This document shows positions 1,505 through 20,158 of a DNA stretch of 26,907 nucleotides, piece after piece; the first letter of the stretch is position 1; every line of letters begins with the position of its first letter. A program made the translations under genes and the position numbers. The notes beneath the pieces are model-generated. The model had not been told where the DNA came from. It searched no databases and saw only the letters and a program-made list of their open reading frames with translations. This DNA is from a virus (taxonomy: Duplodnaviria; Caudoviricetes): positions 1 to 26,907 of the IMG/VR virus record IMGVR_UViG_3300024246_000012. One strand, 5' to 3'.

Positions 1505-2014
1505 TTGCCTCTTGTGAGCATGCAGCAGTACTGCAAGGACCTGCTTGACGGCACGCCGATGCCGCTCGGGCTCGCCCCGATGCAGGCGTATATCACACCG
1601 CCGAACCCGGGTGTGGCCGAAGTCCCGACGCTGTACATCTGGGACGCGGAAGGCGAGGAGTCGCGCGAGTCGATGCCGCGTGCTGCGCCCGGTACGGCGT
1701 TCCTGACGACGGGCGCGTTCAAGTTCTTGCAGCACAAGATCGAGATGTACGTCACGATGGTGGACTACGCCGACGACGTGTCGGTGGACAGCAACTTCCC
1801 CGCCTGCGTCGATGCCGTCCTCGCCGTGCTGCGCAACACCAAGATGCCGATCCTCAACCGTGTCGATCCGGTCACCGGCGGCGTCTCGGACGTCACGATG
1901 ATCGGCGAGCGGATACGCTGGCGCCAGGGCGTGCCGCGCTCACTCCAAGATCAGCGCATGTTGTGGCTAGTCTGCTGGCTTCAGATCGACCTGGTAGAGA
2001 AGATCCAGGCGTAG
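1505..2014 (+). CDS. Putative tail terminator/completion protein (start TTG 1505, GTG 1514 or ATG 1520)
   Basis: C-terminal part of ORF 1151..2014; size and synteny in the connector module. Confidence 0.5.
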   Translation: MPLVSMQQYCKDLLDGTPMPLGLAPMQAYITPPNPGVAEVPTLYIWDAEGEESRESMPRAAPGTAFLTTGAFKFLQHKIEMYVTMVDYADDVSVDSNFPACVDAVLAVLRNTKMPILNRVDPVTGGVSDVTMIGERIRWRQGVPRSLQDQRMLWLVCWLQIDLVEKIQA

Positions 2015-2017
2015 ATA

Positions 2018-2065
2018 TCCGGCGGCGGGTATGTCTTGGTTTTCGCATAGCATTTGGCTGCCGGA
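2018..2065 (-). ncRNA. Solitary tigRNA-like stem-loop unit 1
   Basis: Minus strand reads tccggcag-CCA-aatgctatg-CG-aaaa-CCA-agacatacc-CG-ccgccgga; the flanks pair. Confidence 0.75.
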
Positions 2066-2071
2066 CCCGCT

Positions 2072-2082
2072 TAGCGTATCAC
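2072..2082 (-). promoter_or_regulatory. Extended -10-like motif GTGATACGCTA upstream of unit 1
   Basis: TGn-TAnnnT about 7 nt before the stem; near-identical copies at 4430, 11892 and 22900. Confidence 0.6.
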
Positions 2083-2097
2083 GAACGGAGTGATCAC

Positions 2098-2568
2098 GTG
2101 GCCGGAATGCTGACCTTCACCTCCGACGCCCGCGCCGTCGAGACCCTCGGCTCCAGGTTCGAATGGATTTCCGCGAACGTCATGGCGGCCGAACTGATCC
2201 GCAGGCCCGTCCTCGCCGAACTCCAGCGCGAGACGCCGGTGGCGCAGAAGGTCATCAAGGGCGTCGAGCCGGGCAACCTGCGCGACACCATCAAGTCCGA
2301 CATCCGCTCCGGCGCGGGCACGGTCTCCCTGCGCTACACCTCCGACGCCGACTACGCGGGCTTCGTTGTGGACGGCACCGGCCCGCACGAGATCGTCCCG
2401 CGCTCCGCGTCCGTCCTGCACTGGGTTGACACCCAGACCGGCGAAGACGTCTTCCGCCACCGCGTGTGGCACCCCGGTACGCAGCCCAACGACTTCCCGG
2501 GCCGCACCGCTGACCGTGTCCTGCCGTTGGTAGAAACGGCTTTCGCTTCAGTTTTCGAGAGGTTCTAA
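2098..2568 (+). CDS. HK97 gp10-like neck/tail component
   Basis: GGAG RBS and GTG at 2098; motifs 'ETPV...GNLRDTI...YAGFVVDGTGPHEI...V.HPGTQPNDF'. Confidence 0.7.
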   Translation: MAGMLTFTSDARAVETLGSRFEWISANVMAAELIRRPVLAELQRETPVAQKVIKGVEPGNLRDTIKSDIRSGAGTVSLRYTSDADYAGFVVDGTGPHEIVPRSASVLHWVDTQTGEDVFRHRVWHPGTQPNDFPGRTADRVLPLVETAFASVFERF

Positions 2569-2879
2569 TGCCCACCAAGACGCGCCTGGACACCGATGTC
2601 GAAGCTCCGGCAGATGCCCCGCCCGTGGCCGACGCGGTCCCGGCCGTGGAGGCTGCGGCCCCCGAGCCCGTGGCTGCGACTGCGGAAGAGTCCGAAGACC
2701 AGCGCCCCCACTCCGACGACCTCTGGCAGGCCGGGCCCTGGGTCGCGTTGACCTACACGGGCGACCCCAAGGTCTACATCCCGCTCGGCGAGCTCGCTTA
2801 CGGCGACGTCCGCAACGTACCCGCCCCTCTCGCCGAGTCGTACCTCGCGACCCGCGATTTCGTTCCCGCAGCGGCCTGA
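2568..2879 (+). CDS. Hypothetical protein
   Basis: TAATG stop/start overlap with the previous gene; Ala/Pro/Glu-rich N-terminus. Confidence 0.7.
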   Translation: MPTKTRLDTDVEAPADAPPVADAVPAVEAAAPEPVAATAEESEDQRPHSDDLWQAGPWVALTYTGDPKVYIPLGELAYGDVRNVPAPLAESYLATRDFVPAAA

Positions 2880-2928
2880 AGACCCGCTCCCCCGACCCGT
2901 CGTGGCGTAATCCACGGGAAAGGTCTGT

Positions 2929-4362
2929 GTGCCCACTACGGTCGTCGAGCGCTGGGGCAGTCTGTCTGCCTGTGGAGTCGCCCGCGAAGTGACTTTCGGT
3001 ACGCCGCTCACTCCGACGTCTTTCATTCCCATGACCGGCAATGAGCTTCAGCTCGATGTCGGCCTCTTCTCGCCGCACGTCATGTTCGGCCAGAAGGACT
3101 TGAACACCTTCCCGCTGTACGGCCAGTACAAGATGTCCGGCTCGGTCACCGCCCCGGCGTGGCCGACGAACGGCGCTACGTTCATCTCCGCTTCGATCGG
3201 CCCTGACGCGCAGGCGGGTTACGGTGTCGCCGCTCCGACGCCGACCACTTCGACGTCTAATACGGTGGCCAGCCCCACTACGGCGGGCGCAACCACGGTC
3301 ACGTTGACCTCCGCCACCGGTTTCGCGGCGGGCCAGCAGTTGGCGATCGACACTGGCGGCCTGCTGGAGATCCGCAAGATCGCCAGCGTCGCCACCAACA
3401 CCCTGACGCTTTCCGACGCGCTGACGTTCGCGCACGCCGCAGGCGTCGCTGCGGTGACCGGCGCGGCGACCACGACGCTCAACGGCGCGGTGTCGGCGAA
3501 CGCCGGAACGGTGATCGTCACCTCCGCAGCGGGTATCAGCATCAACTCGATCATCCAGATCGACATCAACAGCGTGGCTGGCACGACGACGTCCGAGATC
3601 CGCAAGGTCACGGCGATCTCCACCAACACCTTGACGCTCGACGTCCCGGTGGTGTACGCCCACGGCAACGGGGCGAACGTCTGGCTTGTGGGCGCACCGT
3701 ACTTCCACAACATCCAGCAGGCGAACGTTCTCAGCAGCCTGACGGTCGAGAAGAACCTGGGCAACTTCGAGTCGCTCCAGTTCGCCGGGTGCCGGGTCAA
3801 CAAGCTCGGCATCAGCATGACGGCGACCAACACCGAGGGCACGCTTACGGCGGACCTGATCGCGAAGTCCGTCGCGGTCCTGTCCACGCCGTCGGCTATC
3901 GCGATCACGCCCGAGTCGCCGTGGGTGTTCGCGGAGTCCACGGTCAACCTGTTCAACCAGGTCGTGGCGCAGGCGATCAGCGTCGAGGTCAACATCGAGA
4001 ACGGTGTCAAGGACACCTACACGATGAACTCCTCGCACAACCCGCAGTTCCTCACGCCGGTCACGCGCGCCATCATGGGCAAGATCGACGTGGTCTTCAC
4101 CTCGCTGGACGACGCGACGTGGGGTTACTACAACCAGATGGTCGCGGGCACGAGCGGTCCGCTGACGCTGTCTTTCGCGCACCCCACGACGGGCGGCTCG
4201 ATGACGATCTACCTGCCGAAGGTGGTCCTGGCTAAGACCCCTGATTCGGTAAAAATGGAGGATATTATCACTACCTCCATCGAGTGGACCGCGTTTCTGA
4301 ACATCGCCACGCTCCAGACGATCAGCGCGTTCCTGCTCAACCAGTCCTACCTGGCCGTATAA
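2929..4362 (+). CDS. Major tail (tube) protein with an internal duplicated beta-module insertion
   Basis: 'GVAREVTFGTP', 'SLTVEK...FAGCRVNKL' and 'IYLPKV' resemble tail tube motifs; lies upstream of the chaperones and tape measure. Confidence 0.8.
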   Translation: MPTTVVERWGSLSACGVAREVTFGTPLTPTSFIPMTGNELQLDVGLFSPHVMFGQKDLNTFPLYGQYKMSGSVTAPAWPTNGATFISASIGPDAQAGYGVAAPTPTTSTSNTVASPTTAGATTVTLTSATGFAAGQQLAIDTGGLLEIRKIASVATNTLTLSDALTFAHAAGVAAVTGAATTTLNGAVSANAGTVIVTSAAGISINSIIQIDINSVAGTTTSEIRKVTAISTNTLTLDVPVVYAHGNGANVWLVGAPYFHNIQQANVLSSLTVEKNLGNFESLQFAGCRVNKLGISMTATNTEGTLTADLIAKSVAVLSTPSAIAITPESPWVFAESTVNLFNQVVAQAISVEVNIENGVKDTYTMNSSHNPQFLTPVTRAIMGKIDVVFTSLDDATWGYYNQMVAGTSGPLTLSFAHPTTGGSMTIYLPKVVLAKTPDSVKMEDIITTSIEWTAFLNIATLQTISAFLLNQSYLAV

Positions 4363-4371
4363 GCGGCCTGA

Positions 4372-4427
4372 GACGCCCGGCGGCGTATGAAGATTGGGTT
4401 TCGGCGCACCTTTAGCCGCCGGGCGTC
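4372..4427 (-). ncRNA. Solitary tigRNA-like stem-loop unit 2
   Basis: Minus strand reads gacgcccggcgg-CTA-aaggtgcgc-CG-aaac-CCA-atcttcata-CG-ccgccgggcgtc; perfect 12-bp closing stem. Confidence 0.75.
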
Positions 4428-4429
4428 AT

Positions 4430-4440
4430 TAACGTATCAC
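4430..4440 (-). promoter_or_regulatory. Extended -10-like motif GTGATACGTTA upstream of unit 2
   Basis: Repeated motif immediately 5' of the stem on the minus strand. Confidence 0.6.
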
Positions 4441-4465
4441 ATACTCACGAGTAAGGACACTGCCT

Positions 4466-4915
4466 GTGGATGTCAGCCCCTACGAGGGCACCGTCGAGGT
4501 GCGTATCGGCGATAGCGGCATCGTCGTGATGCGCGAACGCATTCCCGGCGGCGACCGCGAGCACGCCGATAAGGTCCGCATGCGAATTAGCACCAGCGCC
4601 AAGGCCCGCACGACCGACTCGAAGATCGCGGCCGAGGACATGTCCGTCTCCACCGAGATGGACGAGGCAGCCTACCACCTGGCGCTGCTCGACGCGTTCA
4701 TCGTGTCGTGGAACCTGACGCGCCACGGCGTCCTGATCCCGCTCACGCCCGCCCCCGTACGGGAAGCGTCCATCAGGGGTCTGCCGGACCCGCTCTACAC
4801 GCCGCTGGTCAAGAAGGCCCTGGAGCTGGTGGAGGCCGCGTCGCGTACGACGGAAGACCAGGTCCAGTTTCAGCCTGGCAGTGGTGACGGCGGCGCGCAC
4901 CGGGTCCACATCTGA
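4466..4915 (+). CDS. Tail assembly chaperone (G-like)
   Basis: Between tail tube and tape measure; 'IVSWNLT..G..IP.T' motif; AAGGA RBS. Confidence 0.75.
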   Translation: MDVSPYEGTVEVRIGDSGIVVMRERIPGGDREHADKVRMRISTSAKARTTDSKIAAEDMSVSTEMDEAAYHLALLDAFIVSWNLTRHGVLIPLTPAPVREASIRGLPDPLYTPLVKKALELVEAASRTTEDQVQFQPGSGDGGAHRVHI

Positions 4916-5171
4916 TCCACGGATCGTGCGCATCTGGCTGCGTCGGGCGTTCTGGAAGAACTTCGGGACCAACCTGGACGACGCTTGGAGCCATTGGCCC
5001 GAGCAGGAGTTCCAGGATGCTGTCAGCGTCCTGAACTCCGAGGCCCAGGCGTCGCGCACCGGCTCTGGCGGGGGCGGCTCCATCCCGGCGGAGACCACGC
5101 AGGCGAACTTCGACGCGCTGCCGCGTATACCACGCCCGGAAGAACCCCCGCAGGAACCACCACCGGCGTAA
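4881..5171 (+). CDS. Tail assembly chaperone second frame (T-like), probably expressed by frameshift
   Basis: Overlaps the end of the G-like ORF in the +1 frame, has no clear RBS and ends just before the tape measure gene. Confidence 0.6.
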   Translation: MVTAARTGSTSDPRIVRIWLRRAFWKNFGTNLDDAWSHWPEQEFQDAVSVLNSEAQASRTGSGGGGSIPAETTQANFDALPRIPRPEEPPQEPPPA

Positions 5172-5183
5172 CAGGGGGTTGTC

Positions 5184-8100
5184 ATGGCGGACCGCACGAC
5201 CCGCGTCCTGCTGGAGATCATGGCGCTGGACAAGGCGACTGCGGTCCTCGGCTCGATGATGACCTCGCTCCAGGCCTGGGCCGACAAGATGAACGCCGTC
5301 GGCGAAGAGACGCAGCTGACCTCTGAGCAGCTCGAAGTCGCACAGGTGCGTCTCCAGGGCGCTTCGGACGCCTATGCCGTGTCCCTGGAGGCTCAGGCCA
5401 CTGCACTGGGCAAGCTCGAAGCAGCCCAGGCCACGGTCGTCGAGAGCCAGCAGGCCGCTGTGAGCGCCCAGCTGGAGGCGCAGCGCGCCGCCGAGGAGGC
5501 CGCTGTCGCCACAGGCGCGGAGGCGGCCTCGCTGGAGGCGTACGCCACGACGGCCACAAGGGTGGCCGCAGAGACGGCCGCAGCGGTGCAGGCCTCCGTC
5601 ACCGAGCAGGTCGCCGCCTACGACCGGCTGATGGCCGCCGACGCCCTCGTGGCGAAGCGGGCGCGGCAGACCGCCGACGCGCAGATCGCGGGCAACGAGG
5701 AGACCGATGCTTCCACGGTGAAGCTCGGCAAACTGGGCCCGGCGCTGCTGGCCACCGGTCTCGCGATCGGCTATCTGGGCACGAAGTCCGTGGAGTCGGC
5801 CGCGAATTTCCAGACGCTGATGACGAAGCTCGTCACGTCTGCCGGTGAGTCCAAGGACGCCCTCACGGCCGTGAGCCAGGGCGTGCTGAACGTCTCGACC
5901 ATGACGGGCACTTCGGCCGACGAGCTGGCCAAGGCCTTGTACTACGTGGACTCCGCAGGTTTCCACAGCGCCCAGTCCATCACGATCCTGACGGCCGCCG
6001 CCAAGGGCGCCAAGGACGAGATGGCGAATACCGCCGACGTCACCAACGCGTTGACGACGGTCATGACGAACTACCACCTGAGCGCCGACCAGGCGACGAT
6101 GGTCATGAACCAGATGATCACCGCCGTGTCCCTGGGTAAGACCAACCTCCAGGAGTACTCGGTCGCCCTCGCCCAGGTGCTCCCGCTGGCCGCCGCCGCA
6201 GGCGTGTCGTTCGGCGAGGTCGGCGGAGCCATGTCCACGATGACCGCGAAGGGCATGACCGCCCAGCAGGCCGCGCAGGACCTGGCGTTCTCGATCCGCT
6301 CGCTCCAGGGGCCGAACGGCCAGGCCGTCAAGGAGATGGAGCAGCTCGGGCTCTCGGCGACGCAGGTCCAGCAGTCTCTCGGCAAGAACGGCTTGGTCAA
6401 CACGTTCATTGAGCTCCAGAACGCGATCACCAGCCACATGGGCCCGGCGGGCACCGTGGTCATGGACGCGTTCAACAAGTCCAAGACGGCCGCCGCCGAC
6501 GCCAAGCGGATGTTCGACGCGCTGCCCGCTTCCCTTCAGGGGCTGGCCTCGAAGCTGGAGAACGGCACGATCAGCGCCAACAACTGGCGCCTGGCGATCC
6601 GCAACCTGTCTCCCGACCAGCAGAAGCTGATGCAGGAGTTCGCCACGATGCAGACGAACGCGGACGGCTTCAACAGCTTCCTGCGTTCCGGCGCCCCGGC
6701 CGCGCAGTCGTACACCGCTGCCATGCAGAAGATGATGGGCGGCGCGGCGGGCCTGAACACCGCCTTGATGCTCACCAGCGGCAAGGGTTTGCAGACTTTC
6801 GAGAGCAACGTGGCGGCCGTCACGGGCGTCACCAAGAAGGCGAACACCGAGGTTGACGGCTGGGCGGAGATGCAGGGCACGTTCAACCAGCGTATGGCCG
6901 AGGCCAAGCAGGCGCTGGCCAACATGGGTATCGCCATCGGCACCGCCCTGCTGCCGCCGTTGACGAAGCTCGTGACCATGATCGTCGGTTTCTTGGCGCC
7001 GATCGCGACGTGGATCTCCCATAACCAGAAACTGGCGGCAGCTGTTCTGCTGCTGGCCGGTTCGATGGTCACAATCATCGGCGTGACACTCACGGTGATC
7101 AAGGTCATCGGGTTGACGAAGGCCGCGATGGAGGGCCTCGGCAAGGCCATGACGTATGTGGCGGAAAATCCGATCATTCTCGCGATCTTGGCGCTCATCG
7201 TGGTCGTCTACCTTCTGATCACGCACTGGCAGCAGGTCAAGAAGGTCCTGGCCGACGTGTGGGGCTGGATGAAGGTCGCGGCGAAGGACGTCGCCGATTT
7301 CTTCAAGCGCATTTGGGACGACGTCTCCAAGTTCACCAAGCGCATTTGGGACGACATCGCCAACTACTTCAAGCAGGCGTGGGCCGGATTCAAGATCATC
7401 TGGAATGCGACCGGCGGAAAACTCGTCGCAGAGGTCGAACACGCCTGGGATGTCGTCTCGACGTCGTTCAAGAACGAGTGGGACAAGATCTCCGCAGACC
7501 TCTCCCAGATCTGGGGCGAACTCACCACCCTCTGGAACGACACGGGCGGCGCCATCGTCGGCTACATCACCAGCAACTGGGACGAGATCAAGGCCATCAC
7601 GTCCGACATCTGGCACTCGATCTTCGACCCGATCAAGAAGGCCTTCGACGTCATCATGACGATCGTCAAGGCTTACCTCCAGGTCATGGAAGGCATCCTC
7701 AAGGGAGCCTGGGACGTCATCCGGCTGTACCTCCAGTTCGCCTGGGACCTGATCAAGGGCGTCCTCAAGGCGGCATGGGACTTCATGTCCGGCGTCGTAA
7801 AGCTGTACGTCGATGTCATCTGGGGAATCATCAAGGCCGGATTCGACCTGGTCCTGGGCGTCTTCGAAACGGTGTGGGACACGATCAAGGGCGTCATCAA
7901 CACCGCCCTCGACTTCATCAAGGATATCCTCAAGGTGTTCATCGACCTGATCACCGGCAAGTGGCACCAGCTGTGGGTCGATATCGCGAAGACCGCCGTC
8001 GACTTCGTCAACAACGTGAAGTCGCTTTTCTCGGCGGTCATCAACGACACGAAGAAAGCCGTGGTCGATGGGGCCAAGTCCATCTGGGACGGCTTCGTCA

Positions 8101-8684
8101 GCGGCATCGAGGCGGCGCTCAGCGGCATCGGCAAAGCTCTCAAAGACGTCTACAACGCCGTCGTGGGAGCGTTCAAGGACGCCATCCACTGGCTTGAGCA
8201 GGCCGCCAAGGATGTCGTCAACGGTTTCATCAACGGCATCAAGTCCATGCTCGGCGTCGTGGCGAGCGCCGCCGGAAGCGTCGGCGACACCCTGCTGAAG
8301 GGCGTCAAGAGCGCCCTGGGTATCAGCTCTCCGTCGAAGGCGTTCCACGGCCTGGGCATCAACGCCATGGAGGGCCTCGCCAGCGGCATCAACGCGACCG
8401 CCGGGCAGGCAGCCAAGGCGGCTCGCGCTGCGGCCCTGGGCGTGGCTGCTGCGGCCTCGGGGACGATCGGCGGCACCGTGAACATCGGTGCCAGCGGACC
8501 GGGCATGTTCGCCGGTGCCGCCTCCGCCGCAGCGCGGCCCGCCGTGAACATGACGGTCGATCTGCGAGGGGCCCAGATTGCTGGCCCCCAGTCCATCAAG
8601 TGGGTCACCGACCAGCTCAACAAGGACTTCGTCCAGAAGGTCGTGCCCACCGCAGGCATCACGACGCGACGCACGGGAGGGTGA
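5184..8684 (+). CDS. Tape measure protein
   Basis: 1166 aa, Ala-rich and helical; TP901-type core, hydrophobic segments, W/F-periodic 11-aa repeats and 'LGISSPSK' motif. Confidence 0.95.
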   Translation: MADRTTRVLLEIMALDKATAVLGSMMTSLQAWADKMNAVGEETQLTSEQLEVAQVRLQGASDAYAVSLEAQATALGKLEAAQATVVESQQAAVSAQLEAQRAAEEAAVATGAEAASLEAYATTATRVAAETAAAVQASVTEQVAAYDRLMAADALVAKRARQTADAQIAGNEETDASTVKLGKLGPALLATGLAIGYLGTKSVESAANFQTLMTKLVTSAGESKDALTAVSQGVLNVSTMTGTSADELAKALYYVDSAGFHSAQSITILTAAAKGAKDEMANTADVTNALTTVMTNYHLSADQATMVMNQMITAVSLGKTNLQEYSVALAQVLPLAAAAGVSFGEVGGAMSTMTAKGMTAQQAAQDLAFSIRSLQGPNGQAVKEMEQLGLSATQVQQSLGKNGLVNTFIELQNAITSHMGPAGTVVMDAFNKSKTAAADAKRMFDALPASLQGLASKLENGTISANNWRLAIRNLSPDQQKLMQEFATMQTNADGFNSFLRSGAPAAQSYTAAMQKMMGGAAGLNTALMLTSGKGLQTFESNVAAVTGVTKKANTEVDGWAEMQGTFNQRMAEAKQALANMGIAIGTALLPPLTKLVTMIVGFLAPIATWISHNQKLAAAVLLLAGSMVTIIGVTLTVIKVIGLTKAAMEGLGKAMTYVAENPIILAILALIVVVYLLITHWQQVKKVLADVWGWMKVAAKDVADFFKRIWDDVSKFTKRIWDDIANYFKQAWAGFKIIWNATGGKLVAEVEHAWDVVSTSFKNEWDKISADLSQIWGELTTLWNDTGGAIVGYITSNWDEIKAITSDIWHSIFDPIKKAFDVIMTIVKAYLQVMEGILKGAWDVIRLYLQFAWDLIKGVLKAAWDFMSGVVKLYVDVIWGIIKAGFDLVLGVFETVWDTIKGVINTALDFIKDILKVFIDLITGKWHQLWVDIAKTAVDFVNNVKSLFSAVINDTKKAVVDGAKSIWDGFVSGIEAALSGIGKALKDVYNAVVGAFKDAIHWLEQAAKDVVNGFINGIKSMLGVVASAAGSVGDTLLKGVKSALGISSPSKAFHGLGINAMEGLASGINATAGQAAKAARAAALGVAAAASGTIGGTVNIGASGPGMFAGAASAAARPAVNMTVDLRGAQIAGPQSIKWVTDQLNKDFVQKVVPTAGITTRRTGG

Positions 8685-8687
8685 TCG

Positions 8688-10076
8688 ATGTCCACCTCTG
8701 TCCAGCTCCTCATCAACGGTACGGACTACACCCAGTATCTGGAGCAGGGCACGTGGACAATCACCCAGCAATACACGCGCCAGGGCGACACGGCTACGTT
8801 CTACCTGGTGGACGAGCACGCATCCGAGCGCAACACCCCCCCGTCCCTGAACATCTACATCCCGGCCCTGGCCACAGTGACCTTCACCGACCTGGGGCTG
8901 GGGCAGATCCTGTTCGCCGGGTTGGCCACCGCCCCAGAGGTCCAGTACGACGGCCCCAACCGGCTGTACTGGTCCGTGCAGTGCACCGACTGGACGTATT
9001 TCGCGGACCACGGCCTGATCACGGGCGACTTCGTCAACTTCACGGTTGACCAGGTCGTCCTCCTGCTGGTCGCGCAGGCCAACTGCGGAATCAACGCGGC
9101 GCTCGTCGCGAACGGCGGATTCGTCTCGCCGGGACCGGTGATCCCCCGGATCCAGTTCGTCTATTCGACGCTGTCCAACGCTCTAGTCTCTTTGATTCAG
9201 GTCGCCAGCACCTACACGTCGTGGGGCTGGTATGTGGACGAGAGCAGGAACCTCCATTTCACGCCACTGGTGAATGTCGTGAATTCAGGTGTGACATTCA
9301 CGGACGACATCACCGCAGTGGATTCGAATACCGTCGGGCATTACGACACCGACAACTTCACCTACACGTGGGACGGCACGCAGCTGCGCAACCGCGCCGT
9401 GGTGCGCGGTTCGTCCTTCTCGACGCTTCAGACGGACACCTGGTACGGGGACGGCATCACCACGCAGTGGGCGATCTCGCAGGTCCCCGACACCTCGCGC
9501 GTCTCCAGTGCCAGCCTGAAGATCGCCGGGACGACCACGCAGGTCGCGATCCAGTCGGGCACGAGCGCCACCACGCCGTTCGTCATCGTCCAGAACAACA
9601 TCGGCGCGTGGTTCCTGGTGGTCAACACCGGGGGAACCATTCCGACCACCGCGCAGTCGATCGTCCTCAAGTACTACTACACAGCGCCGATCATCGCCCA
9701 GGTGGACAACGTTCCGAGCCAGAACACGTATGCGTCGCTGGCCAACCGTGGGATCTTCGCCACGTACATCCTGGACATCAACCTCAAGACGCTCGCGTCT
9801 GCACAGCAGCGCGGCCAGGCGGAGGTGTTCAGCTTCGGCCTGCCGGAGGAGCGCCTCCAGATCCAGTCCACGGAGCTTTTCGGCGGGCACCTGAGGGCCG
9901 GGCAGATCTTCACCTGGGTCAGCGCTGTCACGCCGAACTCCTCGAACAGCGGGCTGCCGGGGATCAACGACACATTTTTGATCATCTCGAATACGATCGC
10001 GTCGAGCCAGCACGGGTACTACTACCGCACTTACCAGCTCACGGGAGCGCGCACCAGCCTTTCTGTCGGCATCTAG
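8688..10076 (+). CDS. Minor tail/baseplate hub protein
   Basis: Directly after the tape measure gene; 'WYVDESRNLHF' and 'LRNRAVVRG' hub-like motifs. Confidence 0.7.
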   Translation: MSTSVQLLINGTDYTQYLEQGTWTITQQYTRQGDTATFYLVDEHASERNTPPSLNIYIPALATVTFTDLGLGQILFAGLATAPEVQYDGPNRLYWSVQCTDWTYFADHGLITGDFVNFTVDQVVLLLVAQANCGINAALVANGGFVSPGPVIPRIQFVYSTLSNALVSLIQVASTYTSWGWYVDESRNLHFTPLVNVVNSGVTFTDDITAVDSNTVGHYDTDNFTYTWDGTQLRNRAVVRGSSFSTLQTDTWYGDGITTQWAISQVPDTSRVSSASLKIAGTTTQVAIQSGTSATTPFVIVQNNIGAWFLVVNTGGTIPTTAQSIVLKYYYTAPIIAQVDNVPSQNTYASLANRGIFATYILDINLKTLASAQQRGQAEVFSFGLPEERLQIQSTELFGGHLRAGQIFTWVSAVTPNSSNSGLPGINDTFLIISNTIASSQHGYYYRTYQLTGARTSLSVGI

Positions 10077-10091
10077 GCGGCTGGGGGAAGC

Positions 10092-11075
10092 ATGGCAGTC
10101 CTGCGGCCGTACACCCTCCAGGACCTGTTCCAGAACCTCGCGGGAGCGATCAACTCCAACACGGACACGACCACCCAGTTTGAGGTCGTGGACAACTTCG
10201 TCAACGACGCCGAGACGCTGCTGATCAACGTATCCGGCTCGCCTCCGACTCTCACCACGGCGACCGACTATCCAGTGAACGTGTCCGGCGACTACCCCAT
10301 CAGCTATTGGCGGCTGGCGGACGCGGCGACCGGCACGGCGTTCGATTCGAACCAGAACCTGTTCTCGATCTACCCGCGCATCTCCTCCACATCCATGACG
10401 AGCGTGACGCAGGCGGTCACCGGGTTCCTCGCGAACAGCACCGCGTCGCAGTTCACCGCGACCACGTCCAAGATCGTCTTCCCGAACAACGCGTCCCTCC
10501 AGATCACCGCCGACCTGACCATCGAATTCCTGGTCAAGTTCAGCTCCCTGGGATCTTCCGGCAACTCCCACTCGCTCATCAGCAAGGAGGGCGGGACGCA
10601 GGGCAGCGGCGAATTCGCCCTGTATCTCTTCAACAACGCCGGAGTAGGCTCGCTCGTCTACGGCCAGGCGAGCGGTTCGCCGTCCGCCGGTTCCCTGGCC
10701 ACCGCGACGCTTTACCACATCGCGGTGGTGCGCACCGCCTCCAACAACACCGTGACGTTCTACGTCAACGGGACGTCGGCGGGTTCCGGCTCTTACGTAA
10801 CGCCATCGACGACCACGAACAACGTGACGCTCGGGAGCGCGCTCTACGACTCGCCGCTGATGACGCTCGAAGAGGTGGCCATCTACCGCAAAGCGCTGAC
10901 CAGCGCCCAGGTGACACAGCACTACGGGTGGCTGACGGCCAGCAATGCGACAGCGCGGGCTTTCAACGGCGCCGCAACGCCGTACGGGCTGCTGCTGTAT
11001 CCCGGCTACGGGGCCCCGACGTCGGAAACATACTCGAATCCTGCGACACAGTGGGGCACCTTCCAGTGGAAGTGA
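10092..11075 (+). CDS. Minor tail protein with LamG/concanavalin A-like domain
   Basis: 'SYWRL', 'TIEF.VK', 'YHIAVVR...FYVNG', 'EEVAIYRKALTSAQVTQHY'. Confidence 0.85.
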   Translation: MAVLRPYTLQDLFQNLAGAINSNTDTTTQFEVVDNFVNDAETLLINVSGSPPTLTTATDYPVNVSGDYPISYWRLADAATGTAFDSNQNLFSIYPRISSTSMTSVTQAVTGFLANSTASQFTATTSKIVFPNNASLQITADLTIEFLVKFSSLGSSGNSHSLISKEGGTQGSGEFALYLFNNAGVGSLVYGQASGSPSAGSLATATLYHIAVVRTASNNTVTFYVNGTSAGSGSYVTPSTTTNNVTLGSALYDSPLMTLEEVAIYRKALTSAQVTQHYGWLTASNATARAFNGAATPYGLLLYPGYGAPTSETYSNPATQWGTFQWK

Positions 11076-11081
11076 GGGGCC

Positions 11082-11837
11082 GTGCTCTCTAAGAGCGCTT
11101 TCGGGATCCACGGCTCTCTGCGCCTGGAGCTGCGCGACGCTGAGACGGGGGCCCTCCAGGAGGTCCGCGAAAACGGGAACCTGATCGTCACTACGGGACT
11201 CAACTCCCTAGCGGCGGCGCTGAACTGGGCCTTCATCCAGAACTACAACACCGGATGGGGTTTCCCGTTCTCCTCGTCGTCGGGCAACCTGGGCGATGTG
11301 TACGGGGCGCTGGGCACCGGCACCACCACGCCCGCCGCCGCGCAGACCTCCCTGGCCAGCGAGGCGGGGCGAACCCTGCTCAGTACCGGCACGAACTCGT
11401 CGAACGTCCTGACGTACCAGTTCTTCTTCGGCACGACGGCCGCGAACGGCATCATCACCGAGGCGGGGATCTTCACCAACGCCTCGTCTCTCCAGACGAC
11501 GCTGACCACTGCGCTCACTCTGTCGCAGACCTATACCTCGCTTGCCGTGGCGGCGCTGCCCGCAGCCATCCCCAACGGGGTGACCCTCATTCTGAACTAC
11601 GGTGGCGCGCAGGTAGGCGGTGTCACGCAGCAGGTGACCACGGCGGCGCCCGCGAGCTTCGGGGCGACCTCGATCACAGTGACCTCGTTCACGGCGAGCG
11701 CCTCGTTCCCGATCGGGACGGACGTCGCATACAACACGGGCACCCTGCTCGACAGGGCTCTGATCTCTCCGGCGGTCACGAAGACCGCCGCGCAGACCGC
11801 GACGCTGAACCTATCGCTGACCTTGCAGTCCGCCTAG
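11082..11837 (+). CDS. Minor tail protein
   Basis: 'NLIVTTG...ALGTGTT...TSL.SE...ANG.ITEAGIF' tail-collar-like motif. Confidence 0.7.
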   Translation: MLSKSAFGIHGSLRLELRDAETGALQEVRENGNLIVTTGLNSLAAALNWAFIQNYNTGWGFPFSSSSGNLGDVYGALGTGTTTPAAAQTSLASEAGRTLLSTGTNSSNVLTYQFFFGTTAANGIITEAGIFTNASSLQTTLTTALTLSQTYTSLAVAALPAAIPNGVTLILNYGGAQVGGVTQQVTTAAPASFGATSITVTSFTASASFPIGTDVAYNTGTLLDRALISPAVTKTAAQTATLNLSLTLQSA

Positions 11838-11839
11838 CC

Positions 11840-11883
11840 TGCTGGCAACGTTGGCTTGGACTTCGTTGACGGTCTGGCCAGCA
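11840..11883 (-). ncRNA. Solitary tigRNA-like stem-loop unit 3
   Basis: Minus strand reads tgctgg-CCA-gaccgtcaa-CG-aagt-CCA-agccaacgt-TG-ccagca. Confidence 0.75.
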
Positions 11884-11891
11884 AGTACGCA

Positions 11892-11902
11892 TAACGTATC
11901 AC
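11892..11902 (-). promoter_or_regulatory. Extended -10-like motif GTGATACGTTA upstream of unit 3
   Basis: Identical 11-mer to 4430-4440. Confidence 0.6.
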
Positions 11903-12216: not shown

Positions 12217-13008
12217 GTGGCCCTCTACACCGTCAACAACGGGTCAGTCGTCAACGCGGCCGACGTCAACCAGTTCACGAACCTGCTCAACGGCACGACG
12301 ACGAACACCTCCGTCACCGTCGCCAACCGCATCCGTGCCCAGCTGACCGGCGCAACGACCGGCACCGGCGGATATACGGGCCAGGTGGCGGGCGCCCCGC
12401 CGGGCAGCGGCACCTTCCTCACCGGAGACGTCGTCACCGACGGCAGCCTCGGCACGGTGTGGGTGTGCTCCAACGGCGGCTCCCCCGGCAGCTGGAACGC
12501 GGTACCCACCCAGATCGCCACCCAGACGCTCATCTCCGCCGCAGCCTCGGTGACGTTCTCCAGCATCCCCGCGTTCAACCACATCTCGGTGACCTGGAAG
12601 ACGCGCGCCACGGACAACAACGCCGCCGAGCAGCTTTACCTGCGCTTCAACGGGGACACGGCCTCCCATTACCTGTGGGAGAACAACCAGGCGAACAACG
12701 CCGGTGCGGTCTCTGGGGCGACCTCCGCCGGTCTGGTCGGCCAGATCCAGATCGCCACCATCCCGGCCAACAGCGCGACGTCGGGTTTTTTCGGTGCCGG
12801 ACAGTTCACTGTGCCGTATTTCAACGACTCGACGAACTTCGCCGCCGTTTCGGGCACGGCCAGCGCATTCGCCACGGTGACGAACATGTGGAGCGGAACG
12901 TATTCGGGAATGTACAACCAGGCCGTGACGCTCACAAGCCTGACGGTCTTCGCCGCGACCAGCAACCTGGCCATCGGCTCCCGCTTCAGCCTCTACGGGT
13001 GGATGTAG
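12217..13008 (+). CDS. Tail fibre/receptor-binding-like protein, paralogue 1
   Basis: Shared N-terminus MALY.V..G...A.D.NQ..NLL.G; C-terminal 'YLRFNGDT...GSRFSLYG' domain common in phage tail proteins. Confidence 0.7.
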   Translation: MALYTVNNGSVVNAADVNQFTNLLNGTTTNTSVTVANRIRAQLTGATTGTGGYTGQVAGAPPGSGTFLTGDVVTDGSLGTVWVCSNGGSPGSWNAVPTQIATQTLISAAASVTFSSIPAFNHISVTWKTRATDNNAAEQLYLRFNGDTASHYLWENNQANNAGAVSGATSAGLVGQIQIATIPANSATSGFFGAGQFTVPYFNDSTNFAAVSGTASAFATVTNMWSGTYSGMYNQAVTLTSLTVFAATSNLAIGSRFSLYGWM

Positions 13009-13011
13009 CCC

Positions 13012-13929
13012 ATGGCCCTGGCCGCAATCGTCGAAGGCGCGACCTCCTCGGCCACCGACCTCAACCAGGTCGTCAACCTGCTCAACGGCACGACGACGAA
13101 CACCCAGGTCACGGTGAACGGTCCGATCGGCGCACAGCTGGCGGGTACGACCGCGCCCATGCGCTACGTCGGCGGGGTGAACACGCCTCAGGACGTCGCG
13201 TCGATCGACGGGACCCCCTACAGCAGCTTCACCAACTTCTACGCCCCGATCAGCGTACCCCTCACGTACGGGACGACCGACGGCGTGTCCAACGGCACCT
13301 ATTACGGCGCCGGAGACCTGACGTGGGCGCCTGGCGGCCCGATGGCGATCGGGTCTTCGGCGCCCACGTCTATCGGGTATGACATCGCGTACCCCAACGC
13401 CATGACCCCGGCCCTGACGCCTATCCAGATGGGGCCGATCACGATCGGCACGGGCGGTTACGTGTGCCGCGTCCACCAGAGCGCCGCCGTGACGGTCACC
13501 TCGGCGACGCAGGCAGTGAGCTGCGACACGGTGGACTACGACCCGCGCGGGATGTTCCGCCCGTCCATTATCGGATCGGGCCGCGCCATCACCATCCCCT
13601 TCCCGGGGCTCTGGGGCGTCATGGGCTTCATCCACGCGGCCGAGAACACCATGAGCAATCAGTGGGGCATCGCCCTTTACCAGACCGTCCTGTCGGGACC
13701 GCTCACCGCCCTGACGTGCCCGACGGTCCCGTCCGACACCACGAACAAGTACACCGGCGCCGGAGGGATGAGCATGTTCGCGCTCGGTTTCGGCGTGTAC
13801 AGCGCAGGCATCGTCCCCGGTAGCCAGGTCCAGCTGGCCTTCGCGCCCATCCCTACACCACCGACGACGTATTCCCTGGACGTCTCGGGCCCCGACCGCA
13901 CGTTCCTGGCCGTCTGGCTCATCGGATAG
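13012..13929 (+). CDS. Tail fibre/receptor-binding-like protein, paralogue 2
   Basis: Same N-terminal motif; C1q/TNF-like C-terminus ('DTVDYDPRGMF...ITIPFPGLW'). Confidence 0.65.
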   Translation: MALAAIVEGATSSATDLNQVVNLLNGTTTNTQVTVNGPIGAQLAGTTAPMRYVGGVNTPQDVASIDGTPYSSFTNFYAPISVPLTYGTTDGVSNGTYYGAGDLTWAPGGPMAIGSSAPTSIGYDIAYPNAMTPALTPIQMGPITIGTGGYVCRVHQSAAVTVTSATQAVSCDTVDYDPRGMFRPSIIGSGRAITIPFPGLWGVMGFIHAAENTMSNQWGIALYQTVLSGPLTALTCPTVPSDTTNKYTGAGGMSMFALGFGVYSAGIVPGSQVQLAFAPIPTPPTTYSLDVSGPDRTFLAVWLIG

Positions 13930-13937
13930 GGGGCCGC

Positions 13938-14735
13938 GTGGCGCTGTATTCTGTGGCTTCCGGGCAGCCTCCCGCCGCCGCCGACCTGAACCAGGTCATC
14001 AACCTGCTGTCAGGTGCTTCCTCCCCCACGAGCAGCTCCATGCAGGTCGCCAACCGGATCAGGGCTCAACTGACCGGTGCGACGGCCACCTCGGGCCTTG
14101 TGGGTTCCACCAGCGGCGGCGCGCCCGCCTCCGGCACCTTCGCCCTCGGCGACCTGGTGGTAGACACCGGCTACAACTGCCTGTGGGTGTGCACCGGAGC
14201 CGGGACGCCCGGCACCTGGAAGCGCATCGGCGGCCAGACGTGGACGTCCGTCAACTGGATCTCCACGGGAGTCGGCTCCATCGCGTTCCCGCCGGACCAG
14301 ACCACGGGAAACTTCCCGCCTGCGCCGACGGCGATCAACCAGACGTTCTTCACGCGTTCCGGCCGCGTCGGCTTCGACGTGATCCAGGCGAACTACCAGG
14401 TCCCCGAGTTCTACCCCTACCTGTTCCCGGGCTTCTCCGATTCCGCATACGGGTACACCATCCCCTTGACGGGGACCTACCTCGTCACGAACTACCTGGC
14501 CCCTTCCGGGCCCACGGGCGGCACCGACCTGGGTTCGATGATCCTCAAGAACGGCCAGGTCTACCAGTACGGCACCGAGACGCTGTCCTTCGGCAGCGCC
14601 ACGCACAAGGCGACGTCGATCGTGCACTGCACCGCAGGGGACCTGATCCAGGTGGGCGCCTACGCGGAAGGGCAGTATTCCCCTACGGCCTCGTCTTTCC
14701 AGGCGGGATTCAGGATCGCCTACATCGGCAACTAG
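13938..14735 (+). CDS. Tail fibre/receptor-binding-like protein, paralogue 3
   Basis: Same N-terminal motif; C1q-like 'YTIPLTGTYLV...KNG...GDLIQV'. Confidence 0.7.
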   Translation: MALYSVASGQPPAAADLNQVINLLSGASSPTSSSMQVANRIRAQLTGATATSGLVGSTSGGAPASGTFALGDLVVDTGYNCLWVCTGAGTPGTWKRIGGQTWTSVNWISTGVGSIAFPPDQTTGNFPPAPTAINQTFFTRSGRVGFDVIQANYQVPEFYPYLFPGFSDSAYGYTIPLTGTYLVTNYLAPSGPTGGTDLGSMILKNGQVYQYGTETLSFGSATHKATSIVHCTAGDLIQVGAYAEGQYSPTASSFQAGFRIAYIGN

Positions 14736-14743
14736 GAGGCCGC

Positions 14744-15451
14744 GTGGCTTTGTACACCGTCAGCGGCGGCACCGCCCTGGCTCCGCAGGACATCAACCAG
14801 CTGACGAACTTGGTGACCGGCGTGGACGCCAGCACCCAGGTCACGGTGGGCAACGCGATCCAGTCGATCACGCCCGGCTGTCCGGCGCCTTCGCGGTACG
14901 TCGGCGGCACCACCACGGGCGCCCCTTCGTCCGGCACGTTCCTGGCGGGCGACATGGTGATCGCCCAGGACGGTTTCGTCTGGATCTGCGTCACCGGCGG
15001 CACACCCGGCACCTGGTACCGGCAAGGCACGGGAGATTACCAGGCCACTGCCACGCAGGGTGTAGCCCAGACGTTGACGTCGCGCTCCACCCAAACGGGT
15101 TTCGACGTCTTGAACGTCGATACCGTGGTCTCGGATCCGCATAACATGTTCAGCACGTCGAACCACCGCTTCACCATCCCCTTCTCCGGCGGGACGTGGC
15201 TGGTGAACGCGACCGTCGGCACGCTGCTGGCTTCCACGACGTTCTCGCAGACCGCCATCTTGACCAAGAACGGCACGGCGTTCGCGCGGGGCACTGAGGC
15301 GAAGGTGGTCAACGGCGGCAGCAGCATCGTCACCGACCTCCAGCAGTTCGCTTCCGGGGACCTCATCCAGCTGGCCGCCTATGCCGAAGCGGCGGCGGCC
15401 GTGAACACCGGTGCTGGCCGTGTGGTCTTCTCCCTCTGCCTGATCGCGTAG
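14744..15451 (+). CDS. Tail fibre/receptor-binding-like protein, paralogue 4
   Basis: AGGAGG RBS and GTG at 14744; same N-terminal motif; C1q-like 'FTIPFSGGTWLV...KNG...GDLIQL'. Confidence 0.7.
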   Translation: MALYTVSGGTALAPQDINQLTNLVTGVDASTQVTVGNAIQSITPGCPAPSRYVGGTTTGAPSSGTFLAGDMVIAQDGFVWICVTGGTPGTWYRQGTGDYQATATQGVAQTLTSRSTQTGFDVLNVDTVVSDPHNMFSTSNHRFTIPFSGGTWLVNATVGTLLASTTFSQTAILTKNGTAFARGTEAKVVNGGSSIVTDLQQFASGDLIQLAAYAEAAAAVNTGAGRVVFSLCLIA

Positions 15452-15872: not shown

Positions 15873-16262
15873 TTGTCTGACCAGCATCCCGCCGTCGAAC
15901 ATCCGGCCGACCGCGTAAAACGTCGTTCCAGCTGGAACGACTGGCTGGCGCAGCACCTGGTGGCCGTGTTCGGCACCGTGTGGACCGTGTGGGCTTTCGT
16001 CGTCTATCCGCTCCTCGCGCTGCTGTTCCCGCATTCGGTGCAGAACATCGTGTTCTTCATCTCCAGCGGCTGGATTCAGCTATGGGCGCTGCCGCTGCTG
16101 AACTACACCCAGAACCGCGCCGACGAACTGCGCACCGCGAAGGCAGACACCGATCATCAGGCCCTCACGCATGTGGCGACCACGCTGGACACGGTGGCCG
16201 ACCTCGTCTCGACCCTGCACACCCGGCTCGACGCCATGGAACGCAAGGGAGAGAGCCCATGA
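15873..16262 (+). CDS. Two-TM membrane protein, DUF1003-like, putative holin partner
   Basis: 'NDWLA..L...FGTVW...SS..IQLWALPLL...QNR'; ATGA overlap with the lysin gene. Confidence 0.65.
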   Translation: MSDQHPAVEHPADRVKRRSSWNDWLAQHLVAVFGTVWTVWAFVVYPLLALLFPHSVQNIVFFISSGWIQLWALPLLNYTQNRADELRTAKADTDHQALTHVATTLDTVADLVSTLHTRLDAMERKGESP

Positions 16263-17026
16263 GGACGATGTTCGATGGAATCAACACTGACGCCGCCGAC
16301 ATCCCCACGACGGCACGCATCGTCGCCGGGTATGTGGACGGCCTCTACAAGTGGTCTACCACCGACTGGGCCAGGTTCCCGAACGCGGTCAAGGTGCGCA
16401 TCGCCGTGTTCGCGACCACCAACGACGGACACGTGCTTGACTGCGAGCCCGGCAACTGTACCCCTTCACAGTCTGTGGACTGGGTGCTGCTACGGCGCAA
16501 AGCCGGAGCGGACCCGACAGTGTACTGCGGGCGCAACACGTGGTGGCCGCAGATCCAGGCAGCCTTCAGTGCTCGGGGTGTGCCGCAGCCGCACTACTGG
16601 GTCGCGGACTACTCCGTCAGCCAGACCAACCCGCAGATCCCCACGGGCGCTCTCGCGCTGCAATACCGCGACACCGGCGGCTACGACCTGTCTGTGGTCG
16701 CAGACTACTGGCCCGGCGTGGATCCGGCGGTTCCGGCCCCAACCGTTCCCACGGAAGAGGATTCATCCATGGTCATCCACTACATCACCGGCAACCCCGA
16801 GGTGTGGGCGCTCTCCGGGAACCTGTACTGGCATGTTGTCGATCCAGCGTCGCTCGCGAGCTACGTAAAGGCGGGCATCACCGGAGTCACGATCAGTGAC
16901 GCCGAGCACCAGGCGATCCTCGCCGCCGTTGCCGCCCAGCGGCCCACGGTGACCGTGGACGCTTCGCAGCTCTCGGCCGCCCTCGCGGCAGTGCTGCCGA
17001 AGTCGTTCACCGGCACCCTCAGCTGA
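16259..17026 (+). CDS. Putative endolysin (GH25/DUF1906-like glycoside hydrolase)
   Basis: ATG at 16259; 'VLDCEPG', 'PTVYC', 'YWVADY' and 'ALQY...YDLS'; last gene of the late operon, after membrane proteins. Confidence 0.7.
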   Translation: MRTMFDGINTDAADIPTTARIVAGYVDGLYKWSTTDWARFPNAVKVRIAVFATTNDGHVLDCEPGNCTPSQSVDWVLLRRKAGADPTVYCGRNTWWPQIQAAFSARGVPQPHYWVADYSVSQTNPQIPTGALALQYRDTGGYDLSVVADYWPGVDPAVPAPTVPTEEDSSMVIHYITGNPEVWALSGNLYWHVVDPASLASYVKAGITGVTISDAEHQAILAAVAAQRPTVTVDASQLSAALAAVLPKSFTGTLS

Positions 17027-17030
17027 ACTC

Positions 17031-17060
17031 GGCCCCCGGTTCCGGCCGGGGGCCTTTCTT
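17031..17060 (+). terminator. Rho-independent terminator of the late operon
   Basis: GGCCCCCGG-ttccgg-CCGGGGGCC followed by TTTCTT. Confidence 0.85.
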
Positions 17061-17099
17061 CATGCCCTGGTGGTTGACGGATGACGCTCTAGGGTCTCC

Positions 17100-17137
17100 G
17101 GGCGGCCGTGCCCACAGCTTCCAAGGCACGGCCGCCC
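17100..17137. repeat. 13-bp inverted repeat in the convergence region, possible minus-strand terminator
   Basis: GGGCGGCCGTGCC / GGCACGGCCGCCC, nested in an outer CCCTGGTGG/CCACCAGGG stem (17065-17154). Confidence 0.6.
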
Positions 17138-17216
17138 CCATGGGCCCACCAGGGAGGGAACGGCCCACGGAACACGCACGGGGACCTGCTTCTTCTCCCC
17201 CCGCACGGCTGAAGTC

Positions 17217-17789
17217 TCAGACCAGCAAGTCCAGCTGGCCCAGTTCCCGCATGATGTGCGCGCCCCGAGTGCCCTCCACCGCGCCGAAAACGGACAGGTA
17301 GTCCTCCCAGACGGCCCGCGTGAAGTATTCAATGGTGCGCACCGTCTTTTCCGCGAGGATCTCCTCTTTGATGCGGAAGGCTACGCCGACGGCCTCGGTC
17401 TTGGCCTGGCATAAACGCCGCTGGGTGACGATGACGCGGTCCCAGGTGCTCAGCCATGCCCTCCAGGTCGAGTCCAGCTGGGCGTTGACGGCGCCGCGCA
17501 GCATGGGCAGCCAGGTGAGCGAACGCGGCATCTCGGTGGGCTGCGCCGGGCCGGAACGCGGGACGCGGTGCACGGAGATACTCGGGCGTGGCGCCATGAT
17601 CTTGCGCAGGATGCGCTTCGGGCTGACGATACGCCCGCGCAAGGTGGGCCGTGGCTCCAGGGCCTGGAAGATCCCGGTGACCTCCGCGTCGAGTTCGGCG
17701 AGGACCCGGCGTGCACGCCCCGGCTCGCTGGCTGCCGGTGGACGCAACTGCTCCAGAGGGTTCGTACGCTCCAGCAATGTGGTGCTCAT
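17217..17789 (-). CDS. Hypothetical protein
   Basis: AAGGAGAGG RBS before ATG at 17789. Confidence 0.65.
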   Translation of the reverse strand: MSTTLLERTNPLEQLRPPAASEPGRARRVLAELDAEVTGIFQALEPRPTLRGRIVSPKRILRKIMAPRPSISVHRVPRSGPAQPTEMPRSLTWLPMLRGAVNAQLDSTWRAWLSTWDRVIVTQRRLCQAKTEAVGVAFRIKEEILAEKTVRTIEYFTRAVWEDYLSVFGAVEGTRGAHIMRELGQLDLLV

Positions 17790-18264: not shown

Positions 18265-18385
18265 CTGCGGCGTATGATCGTTGGGTTTCGCAAGGGCAAG
18301 GGCCACAGCGCGAGCTCGGTAGGCTTCGTGCAGTGTAAGGCTGCGGCGGATGGGGTTTGGGTTTCGCAAGCCGTCTGGCTGCCAG
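18265..18385 (-). ncRNA. TIGR-like array, 3 units, 38-nt period
   Basis: Minus strand reads CCA-gacggcttg-CG-aaac-CCA-aaccccatc-CG ccgcag CCT-tacactgca-CG-aagc-CTA-ccgagctcg-CG ctgtgg CCC-ttgcccttg-CG-aaac-CCA-acgatcata-CG. Confidence 0.8.
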
Positions 18386-18387
18386 CT

Positions 18388-18397
18388 TAACGTAGCA
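18388..18397 (-). promoter_or_regulatory. Extended -10-like motif TGCTACGTTA upstream of the array
   Basis: TGn-TACGTT, same family as the other motifs. Confidence 0.55.
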
Positions 18398-18757: not shown

Positions 18758-19106
18758 GGTCCTCCTCTGTGATGAGGGCCGCCGTTTCGATCGCGGCGAG
18801 CACCTCCTCCACGGTACGCCCCGGCTCGTCGTTCCACTCCGCCACGTCGCCCTCGTCGGCGACTATGGCGAGGGCCGCCTCCAGCGTGGCGGACCTCGGA
18901 TCCTGGTCCCCCTCCTCTGGGGGGAAGGGCGTTCCATAGAACACGAGGTTGAGCGCACCGAACAGGCAGACGGCGCCGCCGGTGTCCACGTCGGTCGAGC
19001 CGTCGCCGTCCACGTACCACCCCTGGCACCATCCGCGCTCGCGGAGAACCTGCGCCGACGCGCGCAGAACCTCAGGCACCGTGGCTTCGAGACTAAGCAT
19101 CGACAT
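18696..19106 (-). CDS. DUF6197-like protein
   Basis: 'RGWCQG...VCLFGAL...WNDEPGRTVEEVLA' signature. Confidence 0.7.
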   Translation of the reverse strand: MSMLSLEATVPEVLRASAQVLRERGWCQGWYVDGDGSTDVDTGGAVCLFGALNLVFYGTPFPPEEGDQDPRSATLEAALAIVADEGDVAEWNDEPGRTVEEVLAAIETAALITEEDHGEATGDSPGQGTDHPGDHR

Positions 19107-20012: not shown

Positions 20013-20158
20013 ATGCGGCGCGTACGCTTTGAGGTTCGTCCGTGTGATGGCCGCATTGGTTGATGGATGCCGGTGTGGATGGGACGGCGTCCGCGACATG
20101 GGTGACGTGCGAATCGGGGCCGCGCACCCTACTTGGGGTTCGTGGAGGGCATGGCGCC
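20013..20158 (-). ncRNA. TIGR-like array, 4 units (one degenerate), ~35-nt period, directly upstream of the TasA-like gene
   Basis: Minus strand units: CCA-tgccctcca-CG-aacc-CCA-agtagggtg-CG; CCC-cgattcgca-CG-tcac-CCA-tgtcgcgga-CG; a degenerate unit at ~20053-20084; CCA-tcacacgga-CG-aacc-TCA-aagcgtacg-CG. Confidence 0.75.

Follow-up and report, generated by a model that had tools for sequence, protein, structure and literature searches.

The stretch of DNA analysed here, positions 1 to 26,907 of IMG/VR record IMGVR_UViG_3300024246_000012 (hereafter the window), is a 26.9-kb phage fragment with 66% GC. It carries tasA (19093-19989, minus strand), which encodes a 298-residue Nop-domain Tas protein with no nuclease domain, and three solitary stem-loop TIGR guide RNA (tigRNA) units, each inside an intergenic gap and on the minus strand. 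These units, located by a scan for boxes plus stem and by a weight matrix, are S1 (2018-2066, core 2026-2057), S2 (4372-4427, core 4384-4415) and S3 (11838-11885, core 11846-11877). All follow the pattern CCA/CTA-N9-CG-N4-CCA-N9-YG, that is, a 9-4-9 spacing, and the spacers differ among all three. The closing stems are palindromic and variable in sequence, with about 7 bp in S1, 12 bp in S2 and 8 bp in S3. The initial annotation had described one array-type unit per gap with this strand, this spacing and differing stems, 7-17 kb away from a Tas-like gene; all three units are present where it placed them, and their distance to tasA measures 7.2-17 kb.

The units stand out clearly from the background. 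Nine box-plus-stem units were found in the window, as compared to a mean of 0.15 and a maximum of 1 in 60 shuffles. The scan pattern suggested in the initial annotation, CYN-N9-YG-N4-YYN-N9-YG, lacks specificity when the stem is left out (106 matches versus 64 in shuffled sequence). In addition, a weight matrix having 10 array units as its sole training set gives S1, S2 and S3 scores of 31.2, 32.7 and 25.5, with 0.15 shuffle matches per window at a score of at least 20. The fold z-score is -5.4 for S2 and about -1.0 for S1 and S3. Counts of stem pairing are circular, since the stems were a selection criterion for the units, and were not used as evidence. A 251-nt contig from a sequencing run of a different study covers S1 with one letter changed. 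No CRISPR direct repeats flanking a spacer were found at the three gaps, and the window gave no Rfam match. Overall, S1-S3 are very likely guide units.

The other units of the window are closer to tasA. Array A (18265-18397, minus strand) contains three units behind the same promoter-like motif as S1-S3. Array B (20013-20158, minus strand), upstream of tasA, contains three clear units and a degenerate one. Two further units (26791-26892, plus strand) are found about 6.8 kb from tasA, behind TAACGT, the other reading of the motif. The unit type of S1-S3 is also observed beside tas in nearly all of the related viral loci among those listed. Arrays A and B adjoin tas as in published systems, whereas S1-S3 are single and 7-17 kb off. 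In a search with a 14-sequence profile, TasA itself matches TaTasR (9MTY) at E 2.9e-14 and TasH at E 6e-4; both are also matched by sequence. No HNH or RuvC match and no Pfam match was found in TasA, and about 20 residues precede the part that aligns with its relatives. HNH-like genes are located near tasA.

Two complete related genomes were compared with the window: G001 (118.9 kb, Tas 75%), which is collinear with it, and G002 (Tas 46%). G001 contains 47 units (score at least 19.5) distributed over 34 loci, 24 of them single, and 38 units are more than 10 kb from tas. This bears out the proposal of the initial annotation that the guide repertoire is dispersed over the genome. The first and third gaps of G001 keep the promoter motif and hold two units and one unit, respectively. 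In the second gap, an HNH_3 endonuclease gene (G001:65225-65847; L009:5532-6116) stands in place of S2 and there is no unit. The G001 locus orthologous to 26791-26892 has three units. Across eight orthologous pairs between the window and G001, the boxes share 6-10 of 10 letters, whereas the spacers share 3-7 of 18, which answers the comparison of box and spacer conservation proposed in the initial annotation. Hence, we show that the solitary units match the tas-linked arrays, that spacers turn over, and that G001 disperses units genome-wide.

Dispersal differs between lineages. In G002, 17 of 19 units are more than 2.5 kb from tas, with none in the three gaps. Eleven other Tas-bearing phage records contain 0-8 far units (0 in four of them), versus 0-3 with one shuffle each. 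It follows that strong dispersal characterises this lineage, the phage genomes G018 and G030 being weaker cases. The G001 repertoire also includes a cluster (G001:5505-14422; L006) in which about 18 guide units are interspersed among 37 tRNA genes, all on one strand. Five G001 guide loci directly follow a tRNA 3' end, so that tRNA processing could release the guides. Similar tRNA-adjacent units were observed in G002, G018 and G030. In G002, a region at 16261-17506 carries about nine long-stem units, several with their own short TGCTAT-type motif, while tas is at 109 kb.

On the minus strand, the motif GTGATACG(C/T)TA precedes each solitary unit, at 2072-2082 for S1, 4430-4440 for S2 and 11892-11902 for S3. 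It resembles an extended -10 element (TGnTACGCT in S1; the extended -10 promoter consensus is TGnTAnnnT). A start about 7 nt past the motif would coincide with the 5' end of the stem, and the predicted starts are near 2066, 4424 and 11886. The sigma-70 scan gave no promoter with a -35 box, so that the promoters are predicted from the extended -10 consensus and from conservation. On this basis, S1-S3 quite likely have their own promoters. A promoter-like hexamer is also found within 40 nt at 17 of the 34 G001 unit loci. The core of the motif, TACGYTA, occurs at 12 sites at gene boundaries in the window (2078, 4436, 11898, 17852, 18394, 20756, 20783, 21115, 22907, 25861, 26543 and 26786), where either strand can be read as a -10 hexamer. 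Some of these sites overlap stop codons; G001 has several dozen sites and G002 one. Since array A and ordinary genes (for example at 20756, 22907 and 26543) carry the same motif in front, it is a general phage promoter motif. The arrangement seen in the initial annotation, a motif that would place the start near the stem, holds at all three units, but the motif is not specific to guides. TACGYTA sites are possibly bidirectional promoters or the site of a phage regulator.

The geometry of the target was approached through covariation in 495 distinct spacer pairs of the clade, drawn from related phages and not entirely independent of one another. The bases at position 9 of the two spacers, A and B, are complementary in 226 pairs (45.7% versus 26.2% expected, z 9.8), whereas the next best cell of the covariation reaches z 3.1. 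In the subset formed by the window and G001, this complementarity is found in 18 of 45 pairs. In addition, the concordance of GC codon phase between the two halves, position 9 being left out, gives z +6.1 for a gap of -1, -2.4 for a gap of 0 and -3.5 for a gap of +1; codon phase being counted modulo 3, this test alone cannot tell a gap of -1 from a gap of +2. Codon phase suggests coding DNA as the source of the spacers. Taken with the covariation, it indicates that the target is probably 17 nt long, with the two spacers overlapping by one base and sharing one base pair.

Searches over a range of spacer gaps gave little. No self-target with fewer than three mismatches was found in the window at gaps -1 to 2. 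Similarly, 88 spacer pairs searched in the opposite-strand geometry at gaps 0-2 against 1.18 Mb gave no match at 0-1 mismatch, and gap-0 tests on neighbouring genes were null at the DNA and protein levels, the gene calls used in one of these tests omitting the gene at 1520-2014. Scans of viral_contigs with 18-nt targets returned 1, 0 and 1 unrelated matches for S1, S2 and S3. In genome_contigs, the 18-nt S1 target had 17 matches, none actinobacterial. Seven of these, together with the viral match, correspond to one conserved motif of one gene type, which we take to be nucleotide-sugar dehydratase-like. These matches were considered as a lead to a host target and dropped once the overlap geometry emerged.

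With the 17-nt rule, two of the three guides spell a segment of the adjacent virion gene as it reads in relatives. The gene adjoining S1 (1520-2014, plus strand) lies in the virion region and has no family match; its position suggests a head-tail or tail-terminator role. S1 reads M-L-W-Y-V. Among 12 homologues of this gene, 6 are codon-compatible with S1 over 17 of 17 nt; these are all the full-length ones, at 75-90% identity. The window's own gene reaches at most 15. The own allele of the site (1957-1973, plus strand) encodes MLWLVC and matches S1 at 11 of 17 nt, whereas relatives have MLWYVC. The tyrosine is present in five more cluster members, thus in 11 of 11 close relatives, and the leucine in the window only. 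At the DNA level, the G001 allele matches S1 at 14 of 17 nt, the three differences being silent, and it is one of two distinct sites within three mismatches in 194 loci. The gene adjoining S2 (4466-4915, plus strand) would be a tail assembly chaperone, judging from its position between the tail tube-like and tape measure genes. S2 reads K-V-R-M-K-I. Of 8 homologues, 2 are compatible with it over 17 of 17 nt; they are the closest ones (86% and 80%) and encode KVRMKI. Here the own allele (4571-4587, plus strand) encodes KVRMRI; DNA matches to S2 amount to 13 of 17 for this arginine allele and 10 of 17 for G001.

Full compatibility is rare in controls, with 7 of 15,599 shuffled guides for S1 and 9 of 13,323 for S2; other guides gave 0 of 68 on either set. 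The corresponding shuffle p values are 4.5e-4 and 6.8e-4, or about 0.005 and 0.008 after a twelve-fold correction (3 guides, 2 flanks, 2 geometries). The substitutions in the own alleles use CTA and CGA. In the virion genes, CTA makes up 1.4% of the Leu codons and CGA 2.4% of the Arg codons, and the six-codon windows at the own S1 and S2 sites belong to the rarest 4.5% and 3.5%. Such rare codons fit the expectation for escape changes. Apart from the G001 allele for S1, seen in DNA, these matches are at the protein level. In total, targeting of a sibling locus with an altered own locus fits S1 and S2 at the protein level, and neither S3 nor the G001 guides. S1 and S2 are thus likely to aim at kin, that is, at sibling phages.

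We consider it probable that the window encodes dispersed single guides of a TIGR-TasA system with their own promoters, two of which spell sibling alleles of the adjacent virion gene for silencing by TasA. Several results weigh against this. An exact DNA target was not detected: 17-nt scans of viral_contigs returned 7 matches with S1 and 2 with S3, all of them outside homologues of the neighbouring genes. Among 150 distant homologues of the gene at 12217, none matches S3 in full. Tested against neighbouring genes, G001 guides reach p at most 0.1 in 0 of 28 testable cases with relatives and in 2 of 47 with the own genes; the guides of gaps 1 and 3 are among those without a neighbour match, and DNA matches to own neighbours are not above controls. 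A comparison of 165 guides with 14 genomes gave no 17/17 match, and six at 16/17 versus 1-4 in control geometries. As for the geometry, position-9 complementarity is present in only 46% of guides, with S2 among the exceptions, and its signal could reflect an RNA-RNA pair; such a pair is insufficient as the sole account, because it explains position 9 but not the codon phase. The geometry was also changed to an overlap after the gap-0 tests had failed, and for TasR, Faure et al. (2025, PMC12045711) found neither spacer covariation nor overlap.

Further searches for targets were also negative or ambiguous. At the S1 and S2 sites, four sequencing runs showed no diverging allele of a sibling, and guides of A1 mycobacteriophages did not exceed 14/17 in partial A1 loci. 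Partial candidates for S3 (12/17 in the gene at 12217, 13/17 in the G001 orthologue of the gene at 11082) are accompanied by many equal matches. The gap-3 guide of G001 (G001:57703) is codon-compatible with NAPLQF at 1272-1288 of the window (gene 531-1499), while G001 itself has SAPLQF. This is possibly reciprocal kin targeting, but the match is not above the genome-wide background.

The most serious alternative is that the dispersed tigRNA genes are real but have their targets mainly in genes of the host or in unrelated mobile elements. S1 and S2 would then match their neighbours by chance or as relics, and the gaps would be safe landing sites behind a promoter. The lack of a neighbour match for S3 and all G001 guides agrees with it, as do the many G001 units that sit in the tRNA cluster and the 4-11 of 70 guides that reach a permissive 17/17 in about 400 proteins with every geometry. 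On the other hand, S1 and S2 each match the gene next to them, at rare codons and at a residue unique to the window among close relatives, and the shuffle statistics given above do not favour chance. As a general account, we hold this alternative to be unlikely, although it may apply to most guides other than S1 and S2. Most targets may be host genes.

Regulation of the phage's own neighbouring genes by partial pairing, which would time late genes, appears improbable. The best sites within 1 kb of S1, S2 and S3 (11, 13 and 12 of 17) do fall on the coding strand of one of the phage's virion genes close by, and TasA is of the repressor type. Those scores are no better than in control geometries, however; the own alleles deviate from the guide at coding positions where the relatives agree with it, and spacers are not conserved in G001 though the genes are. 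A shade less probable still, selfish homing-like cassettes would have TasA mark the allele of the rival, with recombination or a distinct nuclease copying the cassette and its flanking allele into co-infecting kin. The intergenic location beside the target gene recalls the free-standing homing endonucleases of phage T4 (PMC2988022), and the HNH genes in the second gap of G001 and near tasA go in the same direction, against which stands the absence of a nuclease domain in TasA. This possibility is compatible with guides directed at kin, the two not being mutually exclusive. Finally, we can practically dismiss the idea that the hairpins serve as terminators or act in antisense, with the motif as a plus-strand promoter of the downstream virion genes: although GC stems at gene ends and a -10-like hexamer on both strands invite this look-alike reading, which the initial annotation had already set aside, the loops are 32 nt long, boxes and spacing are fixed, the boxes are conserved while the spacers change, and the terminator scan calls none of the three stems, its only in-gap site being a different, small plus-strand hairpin (2015-2032). 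A second, plus-strand role of the motif is possible.

With kin-directed TasA guides as the preferred reading, the following mechanism may be proposed. Host RNA polymerase would start at the stem and give an antisense RNA of 50-60 nt. This RNA would load on TasA in trans and need little array processing. Spacers A and B would pair with opposite strands of a 17-nt target and share its central base pair, as the covariation suggests. At the protein level, S1 and S2 do fit the alleles of relatives, the own alleles carrying unique substitutions in rare codons. By analogy with TasA orthologues such as MbTasA, bound TasA would block transcription of the rival's virion operon. Lying 70-190 bp from its target, the guide would stay linked to the resistant allele during recombination between sibling phages. 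This linkage parallels the mini-CRISPR arrays of SPV viruses, whose targets are near the arrays, and the free-standing homing endonucleases of T4.

Stem-loop TIGR units had been described before (Faure et al. 2025, PMC12045711; Xu et al. 2026, bioRxiv 10.64898/2026.09.09.750476), and RNA-guided DNA binding and repression were shown for MbTasA by Xu et al. These authors annotate arrays around tas loci, taking flanks of at most 10 kb for the loci of their tree, and leave separate promoters and natural targets open. The window shares with these systems the nuclease-less Nop-domain Tas, two spacers of 9 nt each between boxes C and D, the variable palindromic stem and sub-arrays near tas. It differs in three respects. 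Published guides are in arrays adjacent to or inside tas, whereas here they are single, behind a promoter-like motif, 7-17 kb off, and genome-wide in G001. The published target is 18 nt without overlap, whereas here it is apparently 17 nt with a shared central pair. Lastly, candidate natural targets are proposed here, which both papers call unknown.

Similar strategies exist in other viruses. The mini-CRISPR arrays of SPV1 and SPV2 (Medvedeva et al. 2019, PMC6858448) are also intergenic units of 1-2 spacers with their own promoter; sibling viruses have different spacers at the same position, targets lie near the array in close viruses, and the own site is mutated. They rely on CRISPR repeats and host Cas proteins, whereas box C/D tandem-spacer guides and a phage nuclease-less TasA are found here. 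VIPR (bioRxiv 10.64898/2026.04.26.720920) is likewise encoded by phages and uses RNA guides to silence transcription of rival phages and satellites, but with an unrelated protein and a GGY/NN noncontiguous code. The T4 free-standing homing endonucleases are intergenic elements directed against a conserved gene nearby, in the allele of a related phage; they act by protein-guided cleavage and gene conversion, unlike the RNA-guided system without nuclease domain described here. The literature searched (including bioRxiv 2026.08.11.744272, 2026.07.30.739390 and 2026.09.22.753630), which mostly excluded subscription journals, contained no account of single tigRNA genes scattered over a genome, of a 17-nt overlapping target or of TIGR guides directed at kin, and supplements of the preprints may hold positions of distant guides. 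The initial annotation likewise knew of no description of such a dispersed repertoire. The feature is real, and dispersal in a relative, a probable overlap geometry and candidate kin targets of a stem-loop TIGR-TasA system are now added to that annotation.

Around the units, the plus-strand virion arm encodes a neck protein (2098-2568), a tail tube-like protein (2929-4362) and the tape measure protein (5184-8684). The tail genes at 12217-15451 are four tandem paralogues with a common N-terminal ALYTV-type module. The minus-strand arm encodes Cpn10, an Lsr2 domain, HNH and DnaB genes; the phage-encoded Cpn10 co-chaperonin is at 20787-21086 and the Lsr2 DNA-binding-domain protein at 21459-21791. 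On the basis of its GC content, and of related Tas proteins in Streptomyces and in Mycobacterium/Gordonia/Rhodococcus phages, we infer an actinobacterial host. A 24-nt stretch is shared, with two differences, by the neck gene (2380-2403, plus strand) and the variable loop of tasA (19507-19530, minus strand). Both copies encode HEIVPR, which may be chance.

The same TasA clade is present in cultured phages (90 records, mostly Mycobacterium smegmatis phages). A1-like mycobacteriophages and others (L042-L053, L060, L031) carry it with small stem-loop arrays. In A1-like and other cultured-type records, spacers vary between close phages, and the tas gene is annotated as transposase or hypothetical. 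In many related loci, units called with a 10-nt spacer B after CCC often parse better as a 5-nt loop followed by CCA and a 9-nt spacer.

In a broader perspective, the balance tips modestly towards a clade of actinophages having split the TIGR array into dozens of free-standing guide genes, own-promoter or tRNA-borne, that use an overlapping code of 17 nt. Some of these, placed beside a kin target, would be modules made of a guide and a resistant allele, in an arms race between kin. Natural targets, the role of TasA and the existence of promoters proper to the guides are open in both TIGR discovery papers, and this locus offers a testable answer to each. Searches centred on tas miss most of a dispersed repertoire such as that of G001. 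The 1-nt overlap would explain the failure of 18-nt target searches in the clade. The sites of S1 and S2 provide specific candidate targets, each with a resistant allele already in place. Bench tests of the geometry are possible in cultured phages that carry this clade of TasA. If true, the 17-nt rule would open the discovery of natural targets for stem-loop TasA systems, including those of cultured mycobacteriophages.

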